Below, piece by piece: positions 8,450 through 64,000 of a stretch of 64,000 bases of DNA. Location: contig OX597824.1 of NCBI GenBank assembly GCA_951406725.2, positions 56,916,001 through 56,980,000 on the forward strand, written 5' to 3'. The stretch is from Octopus vulgaris (Eukaryota). A program made the translations under genes and the position numbers. The notes under the pieces were generated by a model. It had not been told where the DNA came from. It ran no database searches and worked only from the letters and a program-made list of their open reading frames with translations. The first letter of the stretch is position 1; each line of letters opens with the position of its first letter.

Positions 8450-8825
8450 TACTCTGCTAGTTCCTCAACAGTTACGGTGGGATTTTGTTCCACCAGGGTT
8501 TGCAGTACTGTTTTTTCTTCATTTGTATTGTTTTTTCTTCATTTGTATTGCTTTTACGTCCTGTTTTTGTCACTTGTTTTACCCCTCTGCAAAAGAATTT
8601 TATTTAATTCCTTTTGCAGGAAGGACTGCTTTGACTGTGTTCTGTCCTTACCTTCGAAACACACTTTGAATCGAACCAGGGACAACTGATGAAGGGGAAT
8701 TTTCCTTGTATTGTTTGTCCTGTACTCTGTTTTTTCGTTGTTTAAAAAAAGTCCGTTTCCTTGTTTGATTTTATGTTCTCGTCTCTCGTTGTGTTCTACG
8801 TTTATTTGTGGTGTCCTGTACTCAC
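8450..8825 (+). mobile_element. PLE-derived short element, family B (related deleted copy at ~15470-15630, minus strand)
   Basis: T-rich body ending at (CA)/(TA) microsatellite; carries hammerhead core strands; shares GAAAC..GAA(A/C)CAGGGA(C/G)AACTG and TGTCCTGTAC-like end with 15470-15630. Confidence 0.55.
8636..8697 (+). ncRNA. candidate non-circularly permuted hammerhead ribozyme (family B)
   Basis: TGTGT-T-CTGTCC ... CCTTC-GAA-ACACA ... GGACAA-CTGATGA-AGGGG; stem III TGTGT/ACACA, stem I TGTCC/GGACA, stem II GGGG/CTTC. Confidence 0.55.
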
Positions 8826-10527
8826 ACACACACGCATATATATATATGTATGCATGTATATATACATGTAGATGTAAGTATGTACATATATGTATGTATA
8901 TATCATTATATTTTATTCATTTATTATATTACTATATATATATACATTACATATATGTACTAATGGACATAAATACATATATACATACACACATACACAA
9001 CATACCGACACACACAACACATAGATACAATATTTAAACAATAAGGCAAATGCACCTACATGTAATGCAATTACACATATGCACACTCAACTCGCATAAT
9101 GCCCACGCACATGCACTCCCTCATTCACACGTATGCACATTCACACACATACACAGGCACCCATACACACAAGCACAGACATATGCACACAAATATTCCG
9201 CGTAAAATACGTAAGAGTGCAGCAAATGAACCAGAGATGCAACCTCTATATTGTCACAAAATCTCCTGAAACCAATATAAATTTACTTCAGCGGCAACCT
9301 AGAAGTATGTGTACTAGAATATACATGGTAAGGAAATACCCCAAAAGTTGCAGGAACAAAACAGCAAAAAGAAAAAGGACAATGCCCGCCACAAAAAACA
9401 AAAACAAAAGACAAACAAACAAATAATCAAAAATAAAGGTTATTAATTTATGTAAGAAACAAAGGGGTGAGTGCGTTTACCACTTAAACAATTGTCTTTC
9501 GTCAACAACAAACAGAGAAATAAATGAAAAGAGAAGACAGTTCCGTGAATGCTTAAAATGAAAACACATAGTTTTTCCTTCTGTTCTTGACAAATGAACA
9601 TTGTCTCGAAACAGTGAATCTCCTATTTCATCACCCAAACTTCTAAACAGCTGCTGAGTGCATCTTTTTATATTTTTTCACACAAGGTTTGTTGACCTCT
9701 TATAAGAAGACAGGCACATTCTCATGCTTCCAGTTATAAAGAGAATATTATAGTGATTGCTATTTAAATCAGTCACAAACCAGAGTTTAACTGTAATGAC
9801 TAGATTCATTTGCATACATTGCAATTGCTTATTCACATTAAACAGCAATTGCATATACACATACAAATATACATCCGCATACATGCACTTACATTTACAA
9901 TAGAGACAAGCTGCCATTGGGCTAAATTTACGTCACAGTTTTGAATGTGTCGAAAAATTGACACTCTTGATATTTTACAGAAATGCATGAGCACCACAGC
10001 ACTTACTCTTCATCCACTAACCCATTTATGGATACTGAAGATTTATAAGTTGTCAGATATTCATGGCTTCTCTCACACAACGGTATGTTAGATATATGAT
10101 TTATGAAAAAACCCAGTCCCGCCCCGCACATACACACAAGAAAATATTTGTACTTTATAAATATGAAGTCTGTATGTATTTATGCCCTTGTGTGAATGTG
10201 TGTCTGTGAATATAATCAAAGCTCCCCTATACACATCTATCAATCATCCCATTGCTTGTGATATATTATTTCCTCATCTTTTACGCGCCCACTTATACAT
10301 ACATGTTTATACTCATGCACAACCAAACTCACACATATTCAGATACATATTAACATGCACACACATACTTACTTATGTTTGTGTTTGTATGTATATATGT
10401 ATGTATACATCCACATAAGCTATTCATTGTAAGCTTTATATATATATATATATATATATATACACGCATGCATAAATATATATTACATGTATATGTATAT
10501 ATGGGCATGTGTATATATCCTTATCAG

Positions 10528-11490: not shown

Positions 11491-13140
11491 CAGTTGCGGC
11501 CCAAATGTTCAGAACGGCATTGTTTTTGTCAGAAAAGTAGATATAAGTTTTTATCAAAGTTGTTTTATATTCTATAATTTTCAGAGACAATAAATACAAT
11601 ATTAATTGGTATTGTCTGAGATTTTGATGTAATTTGAGTGGATAATACAAAAGTTATGGATGATATAGTGATTTACTGCAAAACCCATGGTAGCCAAAAT
11701 GATCAGAACGGTTGAAAAAATAACAAAATAATAAAAAATGACAGAGAATGCTGGAATTATTTCATATTTAGTTGTGAAGCCCTTTAGCTTCAATCAAACT
11801 TTGACATCTTTGACTGCATGAGGAAATTACATTTTCAATTTCTTGCTGGGTGATCTGATTCCATTCTTCCTGAAGGGCATTTCATAATTGCTCGGTTGTT
11901 TTAGGATTTCTGGCTTTCGAACGTTCTCCAGGAGACCTGGATGTTGTCTTTCCGACTCCAGCACATGTTTTCAATAGGATTGAAATCTGGGCTTTGAGCA
12001 AGCCAATCCATAATAATAACCTTTTCAGCCTTGAGGAAGTTCATGAGCGCCTTAGCCTTGTGACATGGGGCATTGTCCTGCATGAATATGGGTGGTCGCT
12101 TAGTTGAATTTCTCAGCACAGGCAAGCCATGATCTTTTACAAGTTGTTTATAAACTCCTGCATTTATCTTTCCATGTAATCGCACCAAAGGGCCCACACC
12201 ATCTCCAGATATCATCCCCCAAACCATGACACTTCCTCCACCGAATTTAACATTAGTCTTAAGGCATTTAGGCGACAATTTTTCACCTGCTTTTCGACGA
12301 ACGTACCTTTTCCCATCTGAGCCAAATAACATAGACTTAGATTCATCACTGAAATGCACCGTTTGCCATTTTTCTTGAGACCACAACACATGTTCGGTTG
12401 CAAAGGTAAGACGACACTTTTTATTCTTGGAGCTGATCAGTGGCTTCACTGCAGGTGCTCTTGCTTGTAGGTCATGTTCAACTAAACGACGAGACACAGT
12501 TTTTCGAGATAAAGTTTTCTTCAGTACAATGCTCATTTCTCGAGAAACAGCAGCAGCAGTTTTAAATCTAACCTGTTTAACCAACCTTACCATAGCACGA
12601 TCTTCTCTCTTGGTCGTTTTTCTTGGCCTACCTGTAGACTTTCTTGCTTCACACGAACCACAATTATCGTAGACCTTAAGAATACCGTGAACAACACTTT
12701 TTGACTTGTTAACAATCTTTGCAATAGACCCAATACTTAAATTATCCTTCTTTCGAAGCTTAATAATCTGCTGACGAATTGGTAACGGAGTAAGTGGCAT
12801 TATATTAACAAAATACACTGCAGATATTCTTACGGCGTGTTTAGTAAATGAACCTTCACGTAAACAAATTCAAAACATTAGAGTTCGCTGGTTAAATATA
12901 CTAAAACATGAAGTAAAGGCAACCATTCTGATCATTTTGGCCGCCATGGGTTTTGCAGTAAATCCTTAAATCATCCATAACTTTTGTATTATCCTCTCAA
13001 ATTACACCAAAATCTCAGACAATAACAAATAATATCGTATTTATTGTCTGTGAAAATTATAGAATATAAAACAACTTTGATAAAAAATTATATCTACTTT
13101 TCTGACGAAAATAATGCCGTTCTGAACATTTTGGCCGCAA

Positions 13141-18994: not shown

Positions 18995-19028
<34 letters not shown>

Positions 19029-19165
19029 AGAAAATAGTAAAGTGTGAAAAAACGACAGAAGGCTTAAATGTTAAAAAATATATATATTTGTGTCAAAATG
19101 TCTGGAGAATATTGGAAAAATTTTTTTTCCCTTTCCTTAAAATGACATAATTTAAAAATTTTTTA

Positions 19166-19205
19166 AAGAAATTACCGGTTTCGCGTGTAGCTTTTCAAAT
19201 TTCTT
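19166..19205 (-). ncRNA. minimal type I hammerhead, U3-A8 variant, in 3' pLTR
   Basis: AAGAAAT-TTGAAAA-GC TACAC GC-GAAA-CCGG-TA-ATTTCTT. Confidence 0.8.
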
Positions 19206-19261
19206 GTGACGTTATGTTTATATTGCATGGAATTATCGTTGTTTTTATTTCCAGGAGATTT

Positions 19262-21667
19262 CTAAATAAGGGGAGGTAGTGAGTGATTTTTTCCGGTGTA
19301 GGGGAGATAATCGCTTAAAAATTTTTTTTCCCTTTTCCTTGTTAATTTCTCCGTGTCAAGTATGTTCGGATGGTTGAGTCTGGGTTTGTACTTTTCAATG
19401 AAGAATGTTTCCTTGTTCAGTCTCATTTGTGTTGATGATCCGAAAGCACATTGGTAAAATGGGAAGATTAAAAATTGTGGCAGTAGTTGCTTTGCGCATT
19501 TCTCAATGTGCTCACTAAAAGGTATCATTCTATATTCTGGGAATGCAATCTGTTGTCGATGCAGTGTGCATCTGCGCCTGAGTGATAGTCCCGTGGAACC
19601 CACGTAGTCTTGGTGGCAGCCCGAGCATTTAATAACATAAATTATGTTTTCAGAGGCACAAGTAAAGTTAGATTTGATCTTAAATTTCTGTCCCTCTTTA
19701 AAGAAGAATTCTGATCCTTCCAATAGGTTAGGACATGTTGCACAGTTCGATCTACCACATTTTTTTACTTTTGCATCCGTAATTTTAGAAGACAATTTTG
19801 CCTTTGTGAGAATCTTTTTAAGTGATTTAGGCTGTTTGTAGCTTTTAATGATTTGGTGTATGTTTAGAATTTCCTTTAATTTTGGGTTTTTATGAAGTAT
19901 TGGTAAATTCTGGGTGATGATGGTGAAGGCTTCTTTGTTTCTGGGGTTGTATGTAGATATGTAAGGTAGTATTTTCGGGGAAGGTGTGTTGTTGTGTTGA
20001 ACTTTTCTTAAAGTTTCTATGTTGATTTCTGTTGCACGTCTGATCCCATCCTCTATGAGTTGAGCTGGGTAATGTCTGTCAATTAGGGTGTTTTTGAGTT
20101 CTTGCAGTCTAAAGTTCCTGGTATTTTGTTCTGACACTATTGTGCATATCCTTCTTGCAAGGTTGAAGGGGATGTTTGTTTTAGTGTGTCTTGGGTGGCA
20201 TGAATTAAAAAGAAGGTATTGTTTGGCGTCTGTGGCTTTGTAAAAAATGTCTGTTTCTATTTTAAGGTTAATTTTTTTAATTAGTACATCCAAGAACGGG
20301 AGCTCCTTTTGGTTGTATTCCATTGTGAACTGTATATTTGGGTTTATGCTGTTCAATAGGTTTTTAAATTTTAGGAGTTTATCTATGTTTTCATTCCAGA
20401 GAATGAAACAATCGTCTAGGAATCGTTTCCAATTCTCTTTTATGTATTGAGAGAGGGAGTTTCCAAAGATTGATAGAGATTCCTGGTAAATGATTATTTC
20501 CATGTATCCCATTGTTAAGTTCGCAATGACTGGTGCTGCCCTTGTACCCATAGCAATTCCGGATTTTTGACGGTAAAATGTATTGTCAAACATGAAGTGG
20601 TTATTGTGTAGGATGAATTCAATTGATTTAGTAATGAATTCCTTACTGATCCTTTTTGGTATTTCTTCCGGAAATTGGTCTAACCAGAATTGTATTGCCT
20701 CCAGTCCATAATTATGAGGTATACTGGTATACAAGTTGACTACATCAAATGAAACCAGGATTGTTTCTTCCTTGGTTTTTTTTGGAAGGTGGTTTAACAT
20801 ATCTAAGTCATCTCTGATATGGCTATCGATATGTTTAAGGAAGGGTTTCAAGAGGATGTCCATAAGTAGACTTAGTCTGTGTGTTTCACAGGTTGGGCCA
20901 GCTACAATGGGTCGTAGTTTTAGGTCCCCCGGATTAGGTGTGTGTATGTATGTCTTTGGTGATTTTTTAATGGTTTCATTTATAATTTGACTTTTATGAA
21001 TTTTTGGCAGACCATAGAAAAGGCTAGGTTTGCATTTAAAGTTTGTTAGGAAATCAATCTCTTTGGTTGTCAGTTCCTTTTCATGGGTTTTAATTAGTGA
21101 AGATAGAGTTTTCATTATTTTTTGTGGGGTGTAGTTGGTAATTTTTTCATAATGTAGGTCTTCATCAAGCAAGGAAATTACAAGATTTCTGTAGTATGAT
21201 GTATCCATTATTACAACTGCATTTCCCTTGTCCGCTTCCTTAATGGTTATATCTTCATCATTTTGGAGTTCTATCAGTTCTTTCCATTGTGTAGTGTTAA
21301 AATTTGGGTTAGTTTTCTGTTTATGTATAGTATGGTAGGGGAAGTTCTCAATGTGGTTACAGAATTCGTCAAGATCTTTATTTCTTCCTCTGTGTGGGAT
21401 GTGTTCACTTTTGTTCTTGACTAGTGATTCATCTTCAGTATTGAAACTGTTTGATGCTTCTGCTAGTCTTAATTTTCTGCAAAATTCTGTTACATTATCC
21501 TTGAGTTCATTTAGGTTTGCTCTGATTGGAGTTGGTGTAAATTTGAGCCCTTTTGCGAGGATGTCAATTTTTATGTTAGAAAGAGGTTTGGTTGAAAGAT
21601 TGATTATCTTCGGTTTTTCCTTATTACTAGGTTCCAGCCTGTGTCCTGGTGTCCCTGGTCCCTGGCT
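19262..21667 (-). CDS. PLE reverse transcriptase + Zn-finger linker + GIY-YIG endonuclease (frame open well upstream of first ATG at 21208)
   Basis: IINLS..KGLKF, ADKGNAVV, FYGLPKIHK, LRPIV, SFDVVNLYT, GIAMGT, RFLDD, LPFLD, CGRSNCATC, IIYVIKCSGC..YVGST; no stop from 21778 to 19262. Confidence 0.93.
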   Translation of the reverse strand, partial: SQGPGTPGHRLEPSNKEKPKIINLSTKPLSNIKIDILAKGLKFTPTPIRANLNELKDNVTEFCRKLRLAEASNSFNTEDESLVKNKSEHIPHRGRNKDLDEFCNHIENFPYHTIHKQKTNPNFNTTQWKELIELQNDEDITIKEADKGNAVVIMDTSYYRNLVISLLDEDLHYEKITNYTPQKIMKTLSSLIKTHEKELTTKEIDFLTNFKCKPSLFYGLPKIHKSQIINETIKKSPKTYIHTPNPGDLKLRPIVAGPTCETHRLSLLMDILLKPFLKHIDSHIRDDLDMLNHLPKKTKEETILVSFDVVNLYTSIPHNYGLEAIQFWLDQFPEEIPKRISKEFITKSIEFILHNNHFMFDNTFYRQKSGIAMGTRAAPVIANLTMGYMEIIIYQESLSIFGNSLSQYIKENWKRFLDDCFILWNENIDKLLKFKNLLNSINPNIQFTMEYNQKELPFLDVLIKKINLKIETDIFYKATDAKQYLLFNSCHPRHTKTNIPFNLARRICTIVSEQNTRNFRLQELKNTLIDRHYPAQLIEDGIRRATEINIETLRKVQHNNTPSPKILPYISTYNPRNKEAFTIITQNLPILHKNPKLKEILNIHQIIKSYKQPKSLKKILTKAKLSSKITDAKVKKCGRSNCATCPNLLEGSEFFFKEGQKFKIKSNFTCASENIIYVIKCSGCHQDYVGSTGLSLRRRCTLHRQQIAFPEYRMIPFSEHIEKCAKQLLPQFLIFPFYQCAFGSSTQMRLNKETFFIEKYKPRLNHPNILDTEKLTRKREKKFLSDYLPYTGKNHSLPPLI

Positions 21668-22215
21668 AAAAAATGTTGGGTGTAATTTTGTTTGTATGAG
21701 TTGTCTGTGAGGTTGTGTGGTATTTGGTCGGGGGAGTGGTGGTATTGTTGCCTCCGATCGTTGTGTGTGTGTGGGAATCTATGGTTGTTAATGCTTGTGG
21801 TGTGTGTAAAATTTCTGTATGGGGAATATTTTTGTTTCGAACTTCTTGTATGTGGGATGTTGCTTGACATAGTGTTTCTTTGCGTTTGTCTTGTGTTTAG
21901 TGGGGACCAGTAGTTTTGGTTCATGGGGTAGTAGTGATTTGTGTGTGGTGTATTTCTTATCCTAGTGTCGTATTGTGCTGTATGGTGGTTGGGTCTGGTA
22001 TTAGGATGTTGTTGGTTTGTTCTGTTTTTGGTGTAATTTCTTTCATAGACGCGTCCTCTTTCAGCTAGTTCCCTGTTAGGTCTAGCGTGGTTTGTAAAGG
22101 TTGGTTGTGGGTGATTTCTGTCTTTAGTGTATGGAGGATAGTTGGGGGTTGTTCGTGGGTTGTTAGGTTTTTCTTTTTTATTTATTGCAATTTTCTTAAG
22201 GAAGGGATTATTTGT
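21604..22215 (-). CDS. 3' part of PLE upstream ORF (N/H/R/T/P-rich), overlapping the RT frame; 5' end lost at the inversion junction
   Basis: Open frame of ~200 codons; the listed start codon lies in the inverted pLTR and is an artefact. Confidence 0.55.
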   Translation of the reverse strand, partial: TNNPFLKKIAINKKEKPNNPRTTPNYPPYTKDRNHPQPTFTNHARPNRELAERGRVYERNYTKNRTNQQHPNTRPNHHTAQYDTRIRNTPHTNHYYPMNQNYWSPLNTRQTQRNTMSSNIPHTRSSKQKYSPYRNFTHTTSINNHRFPHTHNDRRQQYHHSPDQIPHNLTDNSYKQNYTQHFLARDQGHQDTGWNLVIRKNRR

Positions 22216-22409
22216 ACCCAAAAGTACAAACCCAGACTCAACCATCCGAACATACTGACACAGAGAAATTAACAAGGAAAAGGGAAAAAAAAAATTTTAA
22301 GCGATTATCTCCCCTACACCGGAAAAAATCACTCACTACCTCCCCTTATTTAGAAATCTCCTGGAAATAAAAACAACGATAATTCCATGCAATATAAACA
22401 TAACGTCAC

Positions 22410-22449
22410 AAGAAATTTGAAAAGCTACACGCGAAACCGGTAATTTCTT
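22410..22449 (+). ncRNA. minimal type I hammerhead, U3-A8 variant, in inverted pLTR
   Basis: Identical inverted copy of 19166-19205. Confidence 0.8.
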
Positions 22450-22625
22450 TAAAAAATTTTAAAATTATGTCATTTTAAGGAAAGGGAAAAAAATTTTTCC
22501 AATATTCTCCAGACATTTTGACACAAATATATATATTTTTTAACATTTAAGCCTTCTGTCGTTTTTTCACACTTTACTATTTTCTTATATATTCACCCAC
22601 GTGCTTTACCAAACAAACTTTCTTA

Positions 22626-25203: not shown

Positions 25204-25240
25204 TGTTTCTGACGAAGAGCTCCGCTCGAAACGTTAAACA
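25204..25240 (+). ncRNA. minimal type I hammerhead in short PLE fragment (25148-25340)
   Basis: TGTTT-CTGACGA-A GAGC TCC GCTC-GAAA-CG-TT-AAACA; palindromic stem III ACGT. Confidence 0.8.
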
Positions 25241-32339: not shown

Positions 32340-32681
32340 CGTCATTGTAAATATAATTTTGGCGTTTGCTGAATTTTCTAGAGAACATTTCTTAGTGGCA
32401 AGACCATAGCGGATCTAGTTCTAGCATAAGAGTTGTCCACGTTGTGGTCATCCCTCTTATATGAATGTAATATACATACATACATACATACATACATACA
32501 TACATACATACATACATACATACATACATACATACGTAGGTAGTACATACATACATACATACATACATATTTCGTTTTCGTCTCTTGTATTTACATCCGT
32601 CTCGTGCGTTCACATTCCTGTCTTCTACCAAGAAATCTAATGCTTACAGCTTAGTTTTTTTCTTGGGGCTGGCCGAGTTGG

Positions 32682-32750
32682 AGCAAATATCAGAATTGAA
32701 CAGCCGAAATTTGCTATGATGATTCGGTGTCTGACTGAAGATTGAAGGCT
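32682..32750 (+). ncRNA. candidate non-circularly permuted hammerhead (family A, copy 1)
   Basis: AGCAAAT-A-TCAGA ... AGCC-GAA-ATTTGCT ... TCTGA-CTGAAGA-TTGAA-GGCT. Confidence 0.6.
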
Positions 32751-33388
32751 TCGAATGATTTGGTGTGTTCCGTGTTCGTCCCTTCCTGTATTTCACGTTC
32801 TTTATATATAAAAACATTTATTCTTATATTATTGCGGCGTTACGTGCACCCCCCCGTTTGTTTGTCCAATTTTAAACCCTGCACGACTTCTATACACTTT
32901 GTCTTTCCTACCCGCCATTGCTTCTTTACCAAACTATTTTGGCGCCCTCCGATTCTTGCGCCCTCCGATTCTTCCCCCCTCTTCCTCCCATCCTCCTTAA
33001 TCCCTTCTTTCTCCTTTTCTCTTAGTCACTGATTCTGTCCCCTGCCTTCCACCCTCTTTGATTCCCTCTCTCTCTGTCTCTCTTTCTCTCTCTCTCCTGC
33101 AACCTGCTGCTTCTTAACCATTCTGTTGGCGATCGTATCTCGACCAACATGTGTCCCCTCTACCGAAACGGTAATTATTTCTACGCCAGCTGCTATGTTG
33201 TTGTTGTTTTTGTCTCATTTGGTCTAAAGTCGTAAGACAACCATCGTTATATTTTGTTTATCCATTACTGTTTTCAATTTCGTTTTCGTCTCTTGTATTT
33301 ACATCCGTCTCGTGCGTTCACATTCCTGTCTTCTACCAAGAAATCTAATGCTTACAGCTTAGTTTTTTTCTTGGGCTGGCCGAGTTGG

Positions 33389-33457
33389 AGCAAATATCAG
33401 AATTGAACAGCCGAAATTTGCTATGATGATTCGGTGTCTGACTGAAGATTGAAGGCT
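33389..33457 (+). ncRNA. candidate non-circularly permuted hammerhead (family A, copy 2)
   Basis: Identical to 32682-32750. Confidence 0.6.
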
Positions 33458-33530
33458 TCGAATAATTTGTCTGTGTTCCGTGTTCGTCCCTTCCTGTATT
33501 TCACGTTCTTTATATATAAAAACATTTATT

Positions 33531-33596
<66 letters not shown>

Positions 33597-40060: not shown

Positions 40061-41340
40061 CGAGGGACGTTCAATAAGTAATGCCACTGATCCACTTTCA
40101 GTTGTTTGATCTAGCTGAAATTTTGCATGTGCAATTATTTATATCTCTATAGATTAAATAGCAAATTATAGCTCTGAACTAATTGTGGTGTCTGATTTAC
40201 AGGTGTTTGGACTGAGTCAAGTGTGAAATGTTGAGTGTCGAGCAGTGATCCGGTTTTTGTATTTGAATGGATGCTCACCACGGGAGACTTTTGATGAAAT
40301 GAAAGTAACTTATGGTGATGATGCCCCATCATATGACCTTGTAAAACGCTGGCATCGTGAATTCAAATATGGTCGGAACTCTGTGGAAACAGCTCCCAGA
40401 TCTGGTCGCCTCTCTTCTGCCATTGATGAGGCATCTGTCCGTCAAGTTGAGGCTGCCATTTTGGAAGATCGACGCATAACTATTCGCCAAATAGCCCATG
40501 AGGTCAAGATTAGTACCGGGTCTGTGGAAGCTATCATTCATGACCATTTGCATATGCAAAAGGTGTCTGCCAGATGGATTCCCAGGTTGCTCACACCTTT
40601 CCAGAAGCAAGAACGCGTCGAGTGCTCGAGGATGAATTTGGAGATGTGCCAAGAAGATGAGTCAAAATTTTTCAAAAGACTGATTACACAGGATGAAATC
40701 TGGGTCCATCACTATGATCCAGAGACCAAAGCCCAGTCAATGCAGTGGAAGCACCGTGACTCACCTCCTCCAAAGAAGGCAAGGGTGCAGCCCTCCGCTG
40801 ACAAGGTCATGCTCCCAGTCTTCTGGGACCAGGACGGAGTAGTGATGACAGATTTCCTGGCAAAGGCTACCACAATTACAGGAGCCTATTATGCTTCACT
40901 TCTGAGGAAATTAAGAGAAGCTATCAAAATCAAGAGGGGGGCAAGATCAGCAAAGGCATCCTCCTGCAGGACAACGCTCCGGTCCACAACTCGCGTGTCA
41001 CCAGATCAGAAGCACAGGCGTGCGGCTATGAACTCCTTCTCCATCCCCCTACTCTCCTGACCTTGCACCCTCTGATCTCACCTCTTCCCAGCCATGAAGT
41101 TGTTTTTGAAAGGAAAGCGTTTCCCAGATGATGCAGCCTTGATTTCTGAAGTCACGTCGTGGCTGGAGGACCAAGCTGGGATCTTCTACAAAAACGGTCT
41201 CCAGAGCTGCATCAAACAATGGGAGAAATGCATAACTCTGGGTGGTTCCCATGTAGAAAAAGAATAATAACTGTGCCAAGTTTCGTTGCTCTACTGCTAT
41301 GGGGAGTGGGTCAGGGGCATTACTTATTGAACGCCCCTCG
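40061..41340 (+). mobile_element. full-length mariner element (irritans-like), transposase frameshifted
   Basis: TA|CGAGGGACGTTCAATAAGTAATGCC...GGCATTACTTATTGAACGCCCCTCG|TA; WIPRLL, TQDEIW, then QDNA and YSPDLAPSD in a shifted frame. Confidence 0.95.
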
Positions 41341-47614: not shown

Positions 47615-47895
<281 letters not shown>

Positions 47896-57800: not shown

Positions 57801-60515
57801 TTGTTGTTGGCATCCTTTTTTGTCTCGGGAGACAATGGAGTTGCGCATAAAATAATGTAGTTCGGCTTTTACATTTCATGTGCTGATACATCTCCTGCTG
57901 TGGCTGTGTAGTCCTATCCTGGACAAACACTCCCTCTGGCAGGTGCCGCAAATGTAGCGAAGACTTTGCCTGGCTGGTTGTAATATCATAGTTTCTTGTT
58001 GACGTCTTTTCTTGTCTTTCCATTTCTCCTCCCTCTCTCTATCACTCATTTGTGTTCCCTCTTACGGTAAGTCGCCAATCTCCACGGTTGCTGGCAACTG
58101 CTTCCCAGTTGGTAATATTGATGTTATAGGCATTCATGTCCCTTTTGCAAACATCCTTGGATCGTAAGAACGGTCTTCCCACAGACCTAGTGACCCTAGC
58201 AAGCTCCCCGTTGAGTATGTCCTTGGGGATTCTGCCATCTTCCATACGGCTAACATGTCCAAGCCATCTCATACATCTTTGTGTGAGGAGTGCAAACATG
58301 CTTGGTATTCCTGCTTGCTTGAGGACATCTTTGTTGGGGACATGATTCTGCCATTTGATGCGAAGGATTTTCCGGAGGCAGCGCAGATGAAAGATATAGG
58401 CGACGCTCTTGGCGTGTGTATGGCGTCCAAGTCTCACTTCCATACAGTAAAGTGCTAAGTATATATGCCTGGCAAATCTTCATTTTTGTGGTCTTGGTCA
58501 GCTTATTGTTGTCCCATGCCCGTTTGGAGAGTTGGGCCATCACAGCAGCTGCCTTGCCAATGCGTATATTGAGCTCAGCATCAAGGGATAGGTTGTAGGT
58601 GACGGTAGAGCCAAGATAGGTAAACCTCTCCACCTCCTGTAGTCTGTGGTCTCCAATATGTATGTTTGGGATGTCCGATGTAGCCTAACCCATGATGTTG
58701 GTCTTCTTGAGGCTGATAACTAAGCCCAATTCACTACATGCTTGCTAAAAACAGTTGATGAGCCTTTGTAGGGCTTCTTCTGTGTGTGATACCAGAGCGG
58801 CATCATCAGCAAATACCATCTCCTTGATCAGGACGCTTCTGATTTTGATCTTGGCACGCAGACGTGAGAGACTGAACAGTTTCCCATCACTTCTACTGTG
58901 CAGAAACACTCCATCATCTGATGTCTCAAAAGCATGTGACAGCAGCAGCCAAATAAGATGCCAAATAATGTAGGAGCAAGGACACAACCTTGCTTTACCC
59001 AATTCTTATTTGGAAGGCGGCTGATGTTGAACCATTGTGCTGTATGGTGCCTTGCATATCATCATGGAAAGATTTGATGATCCTCAGCAGCTTTGGTGGA
59101 CATCCGATTTTTTGGAGCAGGATGAAGAGGCCTTTTCTACTTACCAAGTCAAAGGCCTTTGTCAGATCAATGAAGGCCATATATAATGACATTTTCTGCT
59201 CTCTGGACTTCTCCTAAATTTGGCGTATGGAGAATATAATGTCAATAGTTGATCTGCTTCTTCAAAAGCCACACTGCGATTCTAGATAAATTCGAGAAGC
59301 AAGCAGTTGCAGCTTAGACAGGATAATGCGAGCAAAGGCCTTTCTAACAGTGCTTAGAAGAGATATTCCACGGTAATTGTTACAATCACCACGGTCACCT
59401 TTGTTTTTGTAAAGCGTAATGATGTTAGCATCCCGCATATCCTGAGGGACTGTACCCTCTTCCCAGCATTGACACAAAAGCTCATGAAGGTGCCGAAGCA
59501 GGATGGTGTTTTTGCCGGTTTTGATGATCTCTAAGGGGATGCCGTCTTTTCCCGGAGCCTTGTTACTTGCTAGGGAGTCAATAGCCTTGGTGAGCTCTGC
59601 TATAGATGGCAGACAAGCAAGTTCGCACATGACTGGCAAGATCTTGAGACCCTCGATTGCAGCTTCAGCTACCGTGGTCTCCCGTGAGTAGAGATCCTGG
59701 TAGTACTCCACCCATCTATCCATTTGTTTGCTTTGGTCCTTGTTGAGATCTCCAGTAGTTGATTTCAGAGGGGCTGACTTGGTTGCGGATGGACCGAGAG
59801 CCTTCTTCAAACAGGCATTCATCCCACGGGTGTCGCCACTGTCAGCAGCTGACTGGATACTCTGACAGATTTCCTGCCAATACCTATTTGCACAGCGTCT
59901 GGCAGTCAGTTGGGTTTTATTTCTTGTCTTTCTGAGTTCTTCGAGTGACTTTGTAGAAGAGTCACTCTTGTATTGCATCAGAGCTGCACGCTTTGCTTCG
60001 ATAACTATTTCCAGCTCTGAGAGCCCAGCACTGAACCAATCTATGTTTTGCCTTTCTCTCATGCCGAAAGTATCTATTGATGTGGTATACAAAGCTTCCA
60101 TGGTATAATTCCACCTACTTTCAGCAGAGGAGGTTGGGCAGCTACTGAGGGAAACCTTGATAGAAACAGCAAAACATTGTCGTAGGGTCCGAGGTTCTGG
60201 CAGTGTTAATGCGTGATTGGCCCATTTTCTTGGAGTGATGGACATTTTTAGGCAGAATCCTCACCCTACTTCTTATTAGTGAATGATCTGTGTCACAATC
60301 CGCGCTGTGGTAACTACGGGTCAGTTGAACAGAATTCAGAAATGATCTCCTTGTAATGATGAGATCCAGCTGATGCCAGTGGTGAGATCTTTGATGTCTC
60401 CAAGATGCCTTGTGGGATGTCTTGTTTGCTTAGAATGTGTTAGTGATGCACAGGTTATGGTATGTGCAAAATTCAAGTAGTCTCTGACCATTGTCATTCA
60501 TGTTGCCAATACCAA
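57801..60515 (-). mobile_element. 5'-truncated degraded RTE-clade LINE
   Basis: KAPGKDGIP, YRGISLL, FIDLTKAFDLV, FADD, FTYLGS, LLYGSETW, RWLGHV, GRP; (CAA)n 3' tail. Confidence 0.92.
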
Positions 60516-63600: not shown

Positions 63601-63662
<62 letters not shown>

Positions 63663-64000
63663 TATAATATTAATTCGAGACAAAACCACTATTTTGCAAA
63701 ACAAACAAGGAAAGACTTAATCAATACATAAAAATTTTAATATAAAGTAAATAAACCGCCACTACAATTGTTTCATGTCTTCAAATGACATTCGTCAGGT
63801 GGATTTCCGATCTTCTAATCAGTTTGAAGACATGAAACAATTGTAGTGGCGGTTTATTTACTTTATATTAAAATTTTTATGTATTGATTAAGTCTTTCCT
63901 TGTTTGTTTTGCAAAATAGTGGTTTTGTCTCGAATTAATATTATATAATATTTTACTATAAAATTGGATTTAATCCTACATCTGATTTTTTCCCTGTAAA
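63390..64000. mobile_element. two fold-back (inverted) PLE pLTR fragments around a (TA)n tract
   Basis: Arms 63461-63526/63545-63610 and 63661-63785/63823-63947; shared tail at 63390-63460 and 63948-64000. Confidence 0.8.
63759..63802 (-). ncRNA. type I hammerhead
   Basis: CCAC-CTGACGA-ATGTC ATTTGAA GACAT-GAAA-CAATTG-TA-GTGG. Confidence 0.9.

Follow-up and report, generated by a model that had tools for sequence, protein, structure and literature searches.

A putative split-core hammerhead ribozyme in a protein-free tandem repeat of Octopus vulgaris

The insertion and its repeat family

The window analyzed here is a stretch of 64,000 nt from Octopus vulgaris (contig OX597824.1, positions 56,916,001 to 56,980,000). 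Its plus strand harbors at 8505-8937 a 5'-truncated insertion of subfamily B1, a copy of a 765-nt non-coding tandem unit that starts about 136 nt upstream of the predicted cut and has a TA tract at its end. All parts of the putative ribozyme lie on this strand. An outer helix, Px, is opened by 8582-8586, which pairs in the MFE fold with 8693-8697 directly after A9 (pair probability 0.83). It is followed immediately by the hairpin Py (8587-8619, from folding), which in turn directly precedes G10.1. The 5' strand of stem II (8620-8624, with G10.1 at 8620) forms five covarying Watson-Crick pairs with 8651-8655, while the 5' strand of P0 (8626-8635), assigned by eye, extends stem III by pairing with 8670-8679. 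Block S, located by descriptor at 8636-8647, comprises the 5' strand of stem III (8636-8640), the predicted cleavage nucleotide 8641 and the 5' strand of stem I. Block G (8651-8663), assigned from its letters and covariation, contains the 3' strand of stem II (8651-8655), G12-A13-A14-A15.1 (8656-8659) and the 3' strand of stem III; a 6-nt bulge and the 3' strand of P0 follow at 8664-8679 by eye. Block C (8680-8692), recognized by its letters, consists of the 3' strand of stem I and CUGAUGA at 8686-8692, and is followed by the 3' strand of Px (8693-8697; folding and alignment), which the sequence-only reading had placed in stem II. The structured unit is 8582-8697, i.e. about 54 nt more upstream than the 8636-8697 of that reading, for which all letters and coordinates are as it gave them.

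The triplet at the predicted cleavage site is GUU, and the revised fold leaves the cut where it had been proposed earlier, between 8641 and 8642. Most close copies carry C at 8632 and G at both 8670 and 8685. Three changes are thus private to the window copy, two of them inside P0 (8632 and 8670). The third, an A at 8685 where the family has G, breaks the pair beside the cut. The earlier suggestion of a decayed copy is borne out by this private C-A mismatch, G being present at 8685 in nearly all of the other 29 closest copies. At 8664-8669, on the 5' side of the P0/stem III loop, B1 is without 3-5 bases that are kept in relatives, yet it has recently been amplified; by eye, relatives from Naiad and from family A have a kink-turn-like loop in place of this bulge.

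Of 2,403 candidates obtained with a 121-base query in the 2.8-Gb genome, 40 were scored (95-98% identity). An exact 24-mer of element B had 1,012 genome matches (0 in the control), and a looser core pattern had 8,779 (16 in the control). The unit is defined by locus L012, in which two ribozymes lie 765 nt apart; it has 36% GC, is protein-free and contains no ORF. Tandems of B, with one ribozyme per unit, occur in L012, L145 and L204, and long B copies run into another unit, none into coding sequence. Two further insertions in the window belong to family A: about 1.4 units of a 707-nt monomer at 32569-33535 (plus), with two ribozymes at about 32620-32750 and 33327-33457 that are both wired as in B, and an A2 copy at 47752-47894 (minus), with its 5' end some 7 nt behind the predicted cut. 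Family A had previously been cited as independent support; the same layout is indeed present, but its independence is not clear, since A may share ancestry with B. Five bases downstream of CUGAAGA (32735 and 33442), the four letters of family A's upstream stem II strand recur, which makes a second stem II formally possible and a switch conceivable.

Insertion ends were mapped for 97 of the first 100 24-mer matches listed, three being left out, in coordinates in which m1 is 8642. The 3' ends of 51 of these copies fall at m288-291 in the TA tract, to which the mapping may be drawn, and those of another 32 at m321-334, two of these after a second round. Among seven inverted pairs, six carry a 40-nt tail on one arm only. 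Element B hence shows (TA)n targets, 5' truncation, partial tandems, inverted 5' arms and a one-end tail; Craig et al. (PMC8557442) describe such targets, partial tandems and inverted arms, together with a tail of 30-40 bp, as features of Penelope-like elements. The same insertion features are found in an intact Penelope-like element of the window. This element (19022-22620, minus) holds an 838-codon ORF with RT, Cys linker and GIY-YIG between inverted pLTRs, one of which has a 40-nt tail. Its 154 scored relatives are 88-100% identical, and its CX4CxxC linker is of the Neptune or Nematis type by the part of PMC8557442 consulted. Near 19200, its pLTR contains a stretch that resembles a minimal hammerhead, except that the first core strand is altered. 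As an autonomous partner of element B, this element (19265-21778, minus) was rejected: it has a different pLTR, and 30 relatives contained two cores, both outside the pLTR position. An ORF with RT and GIY-YIG directly upstream of a B or A ribozyme was found in none of 310 loci.

Elsewhere in the window, 25209-25240 (plus) resembles a short type I minimal-hammerhead core of the kind described for Penelope-like elements, and a perfect 125-nt inverted repeat adjoining a TA tract (63661-63947) has the appearance of a back-to-back pair of truncated pLTR copies whose minimal hammerhead core is degenerate. Transposase frames of the Tc1 and mariner types and a LINE-like fragment occur at 11904-12869 (minus), 40227-41057 (plus) and 59265-60260 (minus). 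The first 1,751 nt (1-1751) form a GC-rich (GCC/GCT)n array with 71% GC versus 35% for the window.

Families A and B1 are young, while the Naiad copies seen are old remnants with 82-91% identity. Arrays of family A hold up to four ribozymes. In the three arrays with two or more full units, only 0-1 substitutions separate units of the same array, whereas the median between arrays is 7, which is compatible with a single template, such as a circle, having been copied several times; later duplication is also possible. Tentatively, the ribozyme could also cut and yet the tandem units stem from linear read-through transcripts or later DNA duplication without a circular intermediate. This alternative touches the last step of the life cycle only. 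It sits poorly with the near-identical units of young arrays that differ from each other, and with the circular RNA formed by known animal retrozymes of such layout (accessible part of PMC7229834), but it accords with partial tandems being typical of Penelope-like elements in general (PMC8557442, likewise in part). The two ribozyme stretches of older B tandems, which are uninformative on the template, differ at 5-6 of about 170 sites, as would be expected from it, and no RNA run is on record: sequencing runs searched with the family A monomer included none among the holders listed. Contigs of three organisms carry relatives of the B and A units. Contigs of about one monomer length or wrapping round were discarded as evidence of circles, because tandem DNA gives the same.

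A probable split hammerhead core

The window was searched with a descriptor for the three hammerhead blocks in any order, which demanded at least five pairs in stems I and III and at least four in stem II and tolerated at most one extra base after A9 and one mismatch beside the cut. The sole match on either strand has the non-circular order S-G-C that had been read from the letters. One hundred block-wise dinucleotide shuffles gave 0 SGC matches and 0.01 type I matches per window; with five extra bases allowed, two family A copies also match. The claim that this order lies outside circular permutation stands, while its supposed novelty does not, the order being already known as type-SGC (Eckert et al. 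2023, PMC10085705). The hammerhead core, i.e. CUGANGA, GAAA, U16.1-A15.1 and H17, is fully present, with the U-A pair in 21 of 22 representatives. The circular order S-C-G and the three-way junction of types I, II and III are absent, and element B lacks the type I hammerhead used as a criterion for metazoan non-LTR retrozymes. No consistent helix between the flanks of stem I and stem II was seen by eye; the linker pairs upstream instead (P0). In Rfam, no family reached the gathering threshold over the window, and at E values up to 10 the region 8450-8950 gave no hammerhead model, only microsatellite-driven miRNA and other chance matches. Microsatellites dominated the output of a repeat finder applied to the complete window.

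A core-only harvest afforded 271 distinct sequences. Of these, 234 formed 20 clusters judged to be true relatives, and the other 37, from small or truncated clusters, were excluded; 142 of the 234 have block S. Since the core letters belonged to the harvest pattern, their invariance is not evidence. For the strand preceding GAAA, a five-pair partner upstream of S exists in 116 of the 142 copies versus 8.2 after shuffling of the upstream part, and a gap-free Px/Py/stem II junction in 77 versus 0.95, in copies that are related and correspond to about ten subfamilies as the independent count. Majority sequences of nine of the 11 clusters having block S contain four different versions of a five-pair Watson-Crick stem II. 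In a structure-blind MAFFT alignment of 22 B-type representatives, 93% of the cells of the split fold are paired (slid controls, 40-46%) and 17 of 27 pairs show double changes, values that overstate the case because the representatives are related and were mostly picked for a high pairing score; the 142-copy count is fairer. Covariation here means double-change counts on an alignment of related sequences. In these terms, stems I and III, as proposed earlier, each have double changes across subfamilies in four of five pairs. The upstream stem II has them in three of five, with 99% of its cells paired, and Py in four of six, while one Px pair changes from C-G to A-U in 9 of 22. Chance is excluded as the origin of the motif.

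The cleavage nucleotide provides a further constraint. By the NUH rule, G is excluded at the hammerhead cleavage position. As this requires, none of the 142 copies has G there (U 71, A 44, C 27).

The sequence-only reading had paired 8651-8655 with 8693-8697 as stem II, which is probably wrong, judging by the alignment: the first pair is unpaired in 21 of 22 representatives and the helix as a whole is 63% paired. A shortened version of this helix would make the motif a plain type-SGC hammerhead, with 8652-8655 paired to 8694-8697, one extra A and the upstream helices as accessory or regulatory parts. This was the first interpretation of the locus and has been given up; the upstream partner is better supported in the alignment as well as in the 142-copy counts. 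The weak 4-bp stem that 8693-8697 could alternatively form is formally paired in 22 of 22 B-type sequences, which speaks against the upstream stem II, and it has one double change. Yet two of its four pairs are G-U, its energy is 0.0 kcal/mol compared with -4.6 for the upstream stem II and -7.4 for Px, and four Watson-Crick pairs occur in only 1 of 140 copies. Moreover, it cannot form in the majority sequences of the Naiad type or of family A, nor, by eye, in the consensus of the squid Naiad, and both of its strands have better, covarying partners. In favor of this reading, a 3-nt linker and an additional base behind A9 are also features of the tested SGC-1 (PMC10085705), and the published SGC patterns demanded CUGAUGAUG or CUGAUGAG, which CUGAUGAAG would escape. 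Taken together, the plain type-SGC reading is unlikely.

In the split-core fold, the chain would thus run through the 5' strand of Px, Py, the 5' strand of stem II, P0, the cleavage site, stem I, the GAAA block, P0, CUGAUGA and the 3' strand of Px. Covariation suggests that stems I, II and III cross one another, so that the pseudoknotted topology of the earlier reading would persist with a different stem II, and that two abutting helices span the interval between A9 and G10.1. Normally, these two nucleotides are joined by a direct bond or separated by one extra base. No tested precedent was found for a helix pair at this position, which could distort the core and thus counts against the fold. 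Nested folding recovers Px and Py unprompted (z -2.6). It gives the upstream stem II a probability near 0 and favors a non-catalytic long hairpin for the core, because pseudoknots are beyond nested folding. Since an RNA limited to 8636-8697 would be without the upstream helices, a cleavage assay on it could give a false negative.

Insertion starts and a possible life cycle

The end mapping is unselective for 5' ends, because its anchor lies 144 nt behind the cut. Among the 97 copies, 14 begin in m35-134, 34 in m-5 to m34, two in m-45 to m-6 and 47 farther upstream, so that 49 copies run through the predicted cut. Of the 34, 29 start in m0-30, nine of these at the first TA (m8). With copies treated as independent insertions in Fisher tests, the rate of 34 ends per 83 copies at risk in m-5 to m34 exceeds both the 2/49 of the next 40 nt upstream (p 1.4e-6) and the 6/89 of the 40 nt just downstream, m35-74 (p 7e-8). 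TA content does not explain this pile-up. Among 69 core-pattern matches from other subfamilies, 24 end in m-3 to m16, nine in m-56 to m-14 and 36 run on. Five of the 97 copies begin 4-5 nt upstream of the cut, and some of these early starts may be chance matches to TG flanks.

A conserved but non-cutting fold, acting as a signal for the retrotransposon protein and causing the pile-up by enzyme stalling, is very unlikely even though half of the copies pass the cut and GUU is a weak triplet. Stalling would be expected around m55, where the fold has its 3' edge, yet ends are few there (six in m35-74); they sit at m0-30 and nearly cease farther upstream. In addition, the cleavage position avoids G. 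Poor in vitro cleavage, which this explanation could invoke, has been described for minimal hammerheads of Penelope-like elements (accessible part of PMC4209133).

The preferred reading is that the window contains a decayed copy of a likely self-cleaving split-core hammerhead within a 765-nt repeat that encodes no protein and probably depends on a Penelope-like RT for its copying; from the sequence, this is considered likely as a whole. Weighing against it are the five copies that begin before the cut and the 49 that pass it, the negative search for an upstream Penelope-like ORF at 310 loci, and the age of the Naiad copies compared with the young families A and B1. Transcripts of tandem units would be cut once per unit, after 8641. 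The enzyme could then prime from a fixed internal site with (TA)n DNA, about 290-330 nt behind the cut. On cut linear RNA, it would run off at the cut and yield copies that begin just behind it, while uncut or re-joined, likely circular, RNA would allow read-through for more than one round and thus generate near-identical tandem units. For the young A and B1 copies, the intact element with the CX4CxxC linker and a similar TA end is no more than a candidate source of this enzyme.

As far as the alignments and counts go, this is a real conserved hammerhead-type structure in a retrozyme-like element, which with good probability works as a hammerhead and probably lies outside type-SGC as defined. 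Slightly favored is the more comprehensive proposal of an undescribed hammerhead with a non-circular core opened between A9 and G10.1 and closed by a pair of abutting helices, which would be the missing ribozyme of cephalopod Naiads, would have been co-opted by many families of circular-RNA retrozymes with about ten thousand copies in a single animal genome and would have left traces of in vivo cutting in 5' ends. If true, non-circularly permuted hammerheads would move from rare metatranscriptome contigs into an abundant animal retroelement. The assumption of Eckert et al. that block C is uninterruptible would break, with standard descriptors and Rfam models missing a whole class, and a construct of 120 nt would allow a test of the puzzle of Craig et al. 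that Naiads lack hammerheads. The clustering of insertion starts behind the cut would be a rare genomic record of ribozyme activity and, at the same time, of how Penelope-like enzymes use cut versus uncut templates.

Relation to known ribozymes and retroelements

Metazoan non-LTR retrozymes (Cervera and de la Pena 2020, PMC7229834; Li, Clavereau and Pollet 2026, bioRxiv 10.64898/2026.07.22.740005) share with element B protein-free low-GC tandem units with one ribozyme each and a proposed mobilization by Penelope-like elements, as far as their accessible text goes. In contrast, they are defined by type I hammerheads and their circular RNA has been shown, whereas element B is known from genomic sequence. 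The portions of these two texts that were covered mention neither octopus nor permuted cores.

Naiads encode EN-RT and were reported to be without canonical hammerheads, although Naiad_Ovul was flagged HHR_half_core (Craig et al. 2021, PMC8557442, in part). Like element B, they target (TA)n and have inverted arms and a tail of 30-40 bp, and the published consensus 3' ends of Naiad_Obim and Naiad_Ovul display the same fold, their stem I resembling that of subfamily B2. Repeats of the genome studied here are nearly identical to published octopus Naiads, and a Naiad-type core pattern has 753 genome matches (2 in the control). About 1 kb upstream of the fold and on its strand, loci L384 and L387 contain remnants of the Naiad ORF, short translated stretches that match the C-terminal region. 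By eye, stem III of the Naiad_Obim and Naiad_Ovul ends bears a clear kink-turn pattern. In the squid Naiad_Esco, again from the portion available, the order S-G-C and stems I, III and P0 can be discerned by eye with an imperfect stem II, while Naiad-1_Dst has a core in normal order by eye. In an arthropod Naiad end in the supplement of PMC8557442, in the record before Naiad-1_Dst, the blocks seem by eye to follow the order S, G, C, stem II forming a closed hairpin and A9 being followed by a Px-like helix; this would be yet another wiring. The fold is not claimed for the whole Naiad clade, as other Naiads differ. The 3' end of Naiad-1_Skow (same supplement) we take to resemble an HDV-like ribozyme rather than a hammerhead. 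In the text covered on Naiads and hammerheads, this fold is unreported.

A published split-core wiring was not found in the literature searched, which took in few subscription papers, and searches there for a hammerhead insertion between A9 and G10.1, or for a k-turn combined with retrotransposons and permuted hammerheads, likewise gave nothing. The plus strand of CChMVd contains an extra nucleotide between A9 and G10.1, i.e. the position tolerates insertion. There, it is a single base, whereas here two helices and the chain ends would occupy this place.

The closest relatives in topology are the type-SGC hammerheads (HRIMA-1 and variants) with the block order S-G-C, which according to the part of Eckert et al. 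2023 (PMC10085705) consulted are published from metatranscriptomes only. When Px closes the ends, the ring order of the octopus fold is that of their non-circular class, opened inside block C. Both have the S-G-C order, three mutually crossing stems, a short linker between stems I and II and the full core. In type-SGC, however, block C is left intact, with a helix connecting the flanks of stem I and stem II (PMC10085705, in part), whereas in the fold proposed here the 5' strand of stem II lies upstream of block S, two helices bridge A9 and G10.1, and P0 extends stem III.
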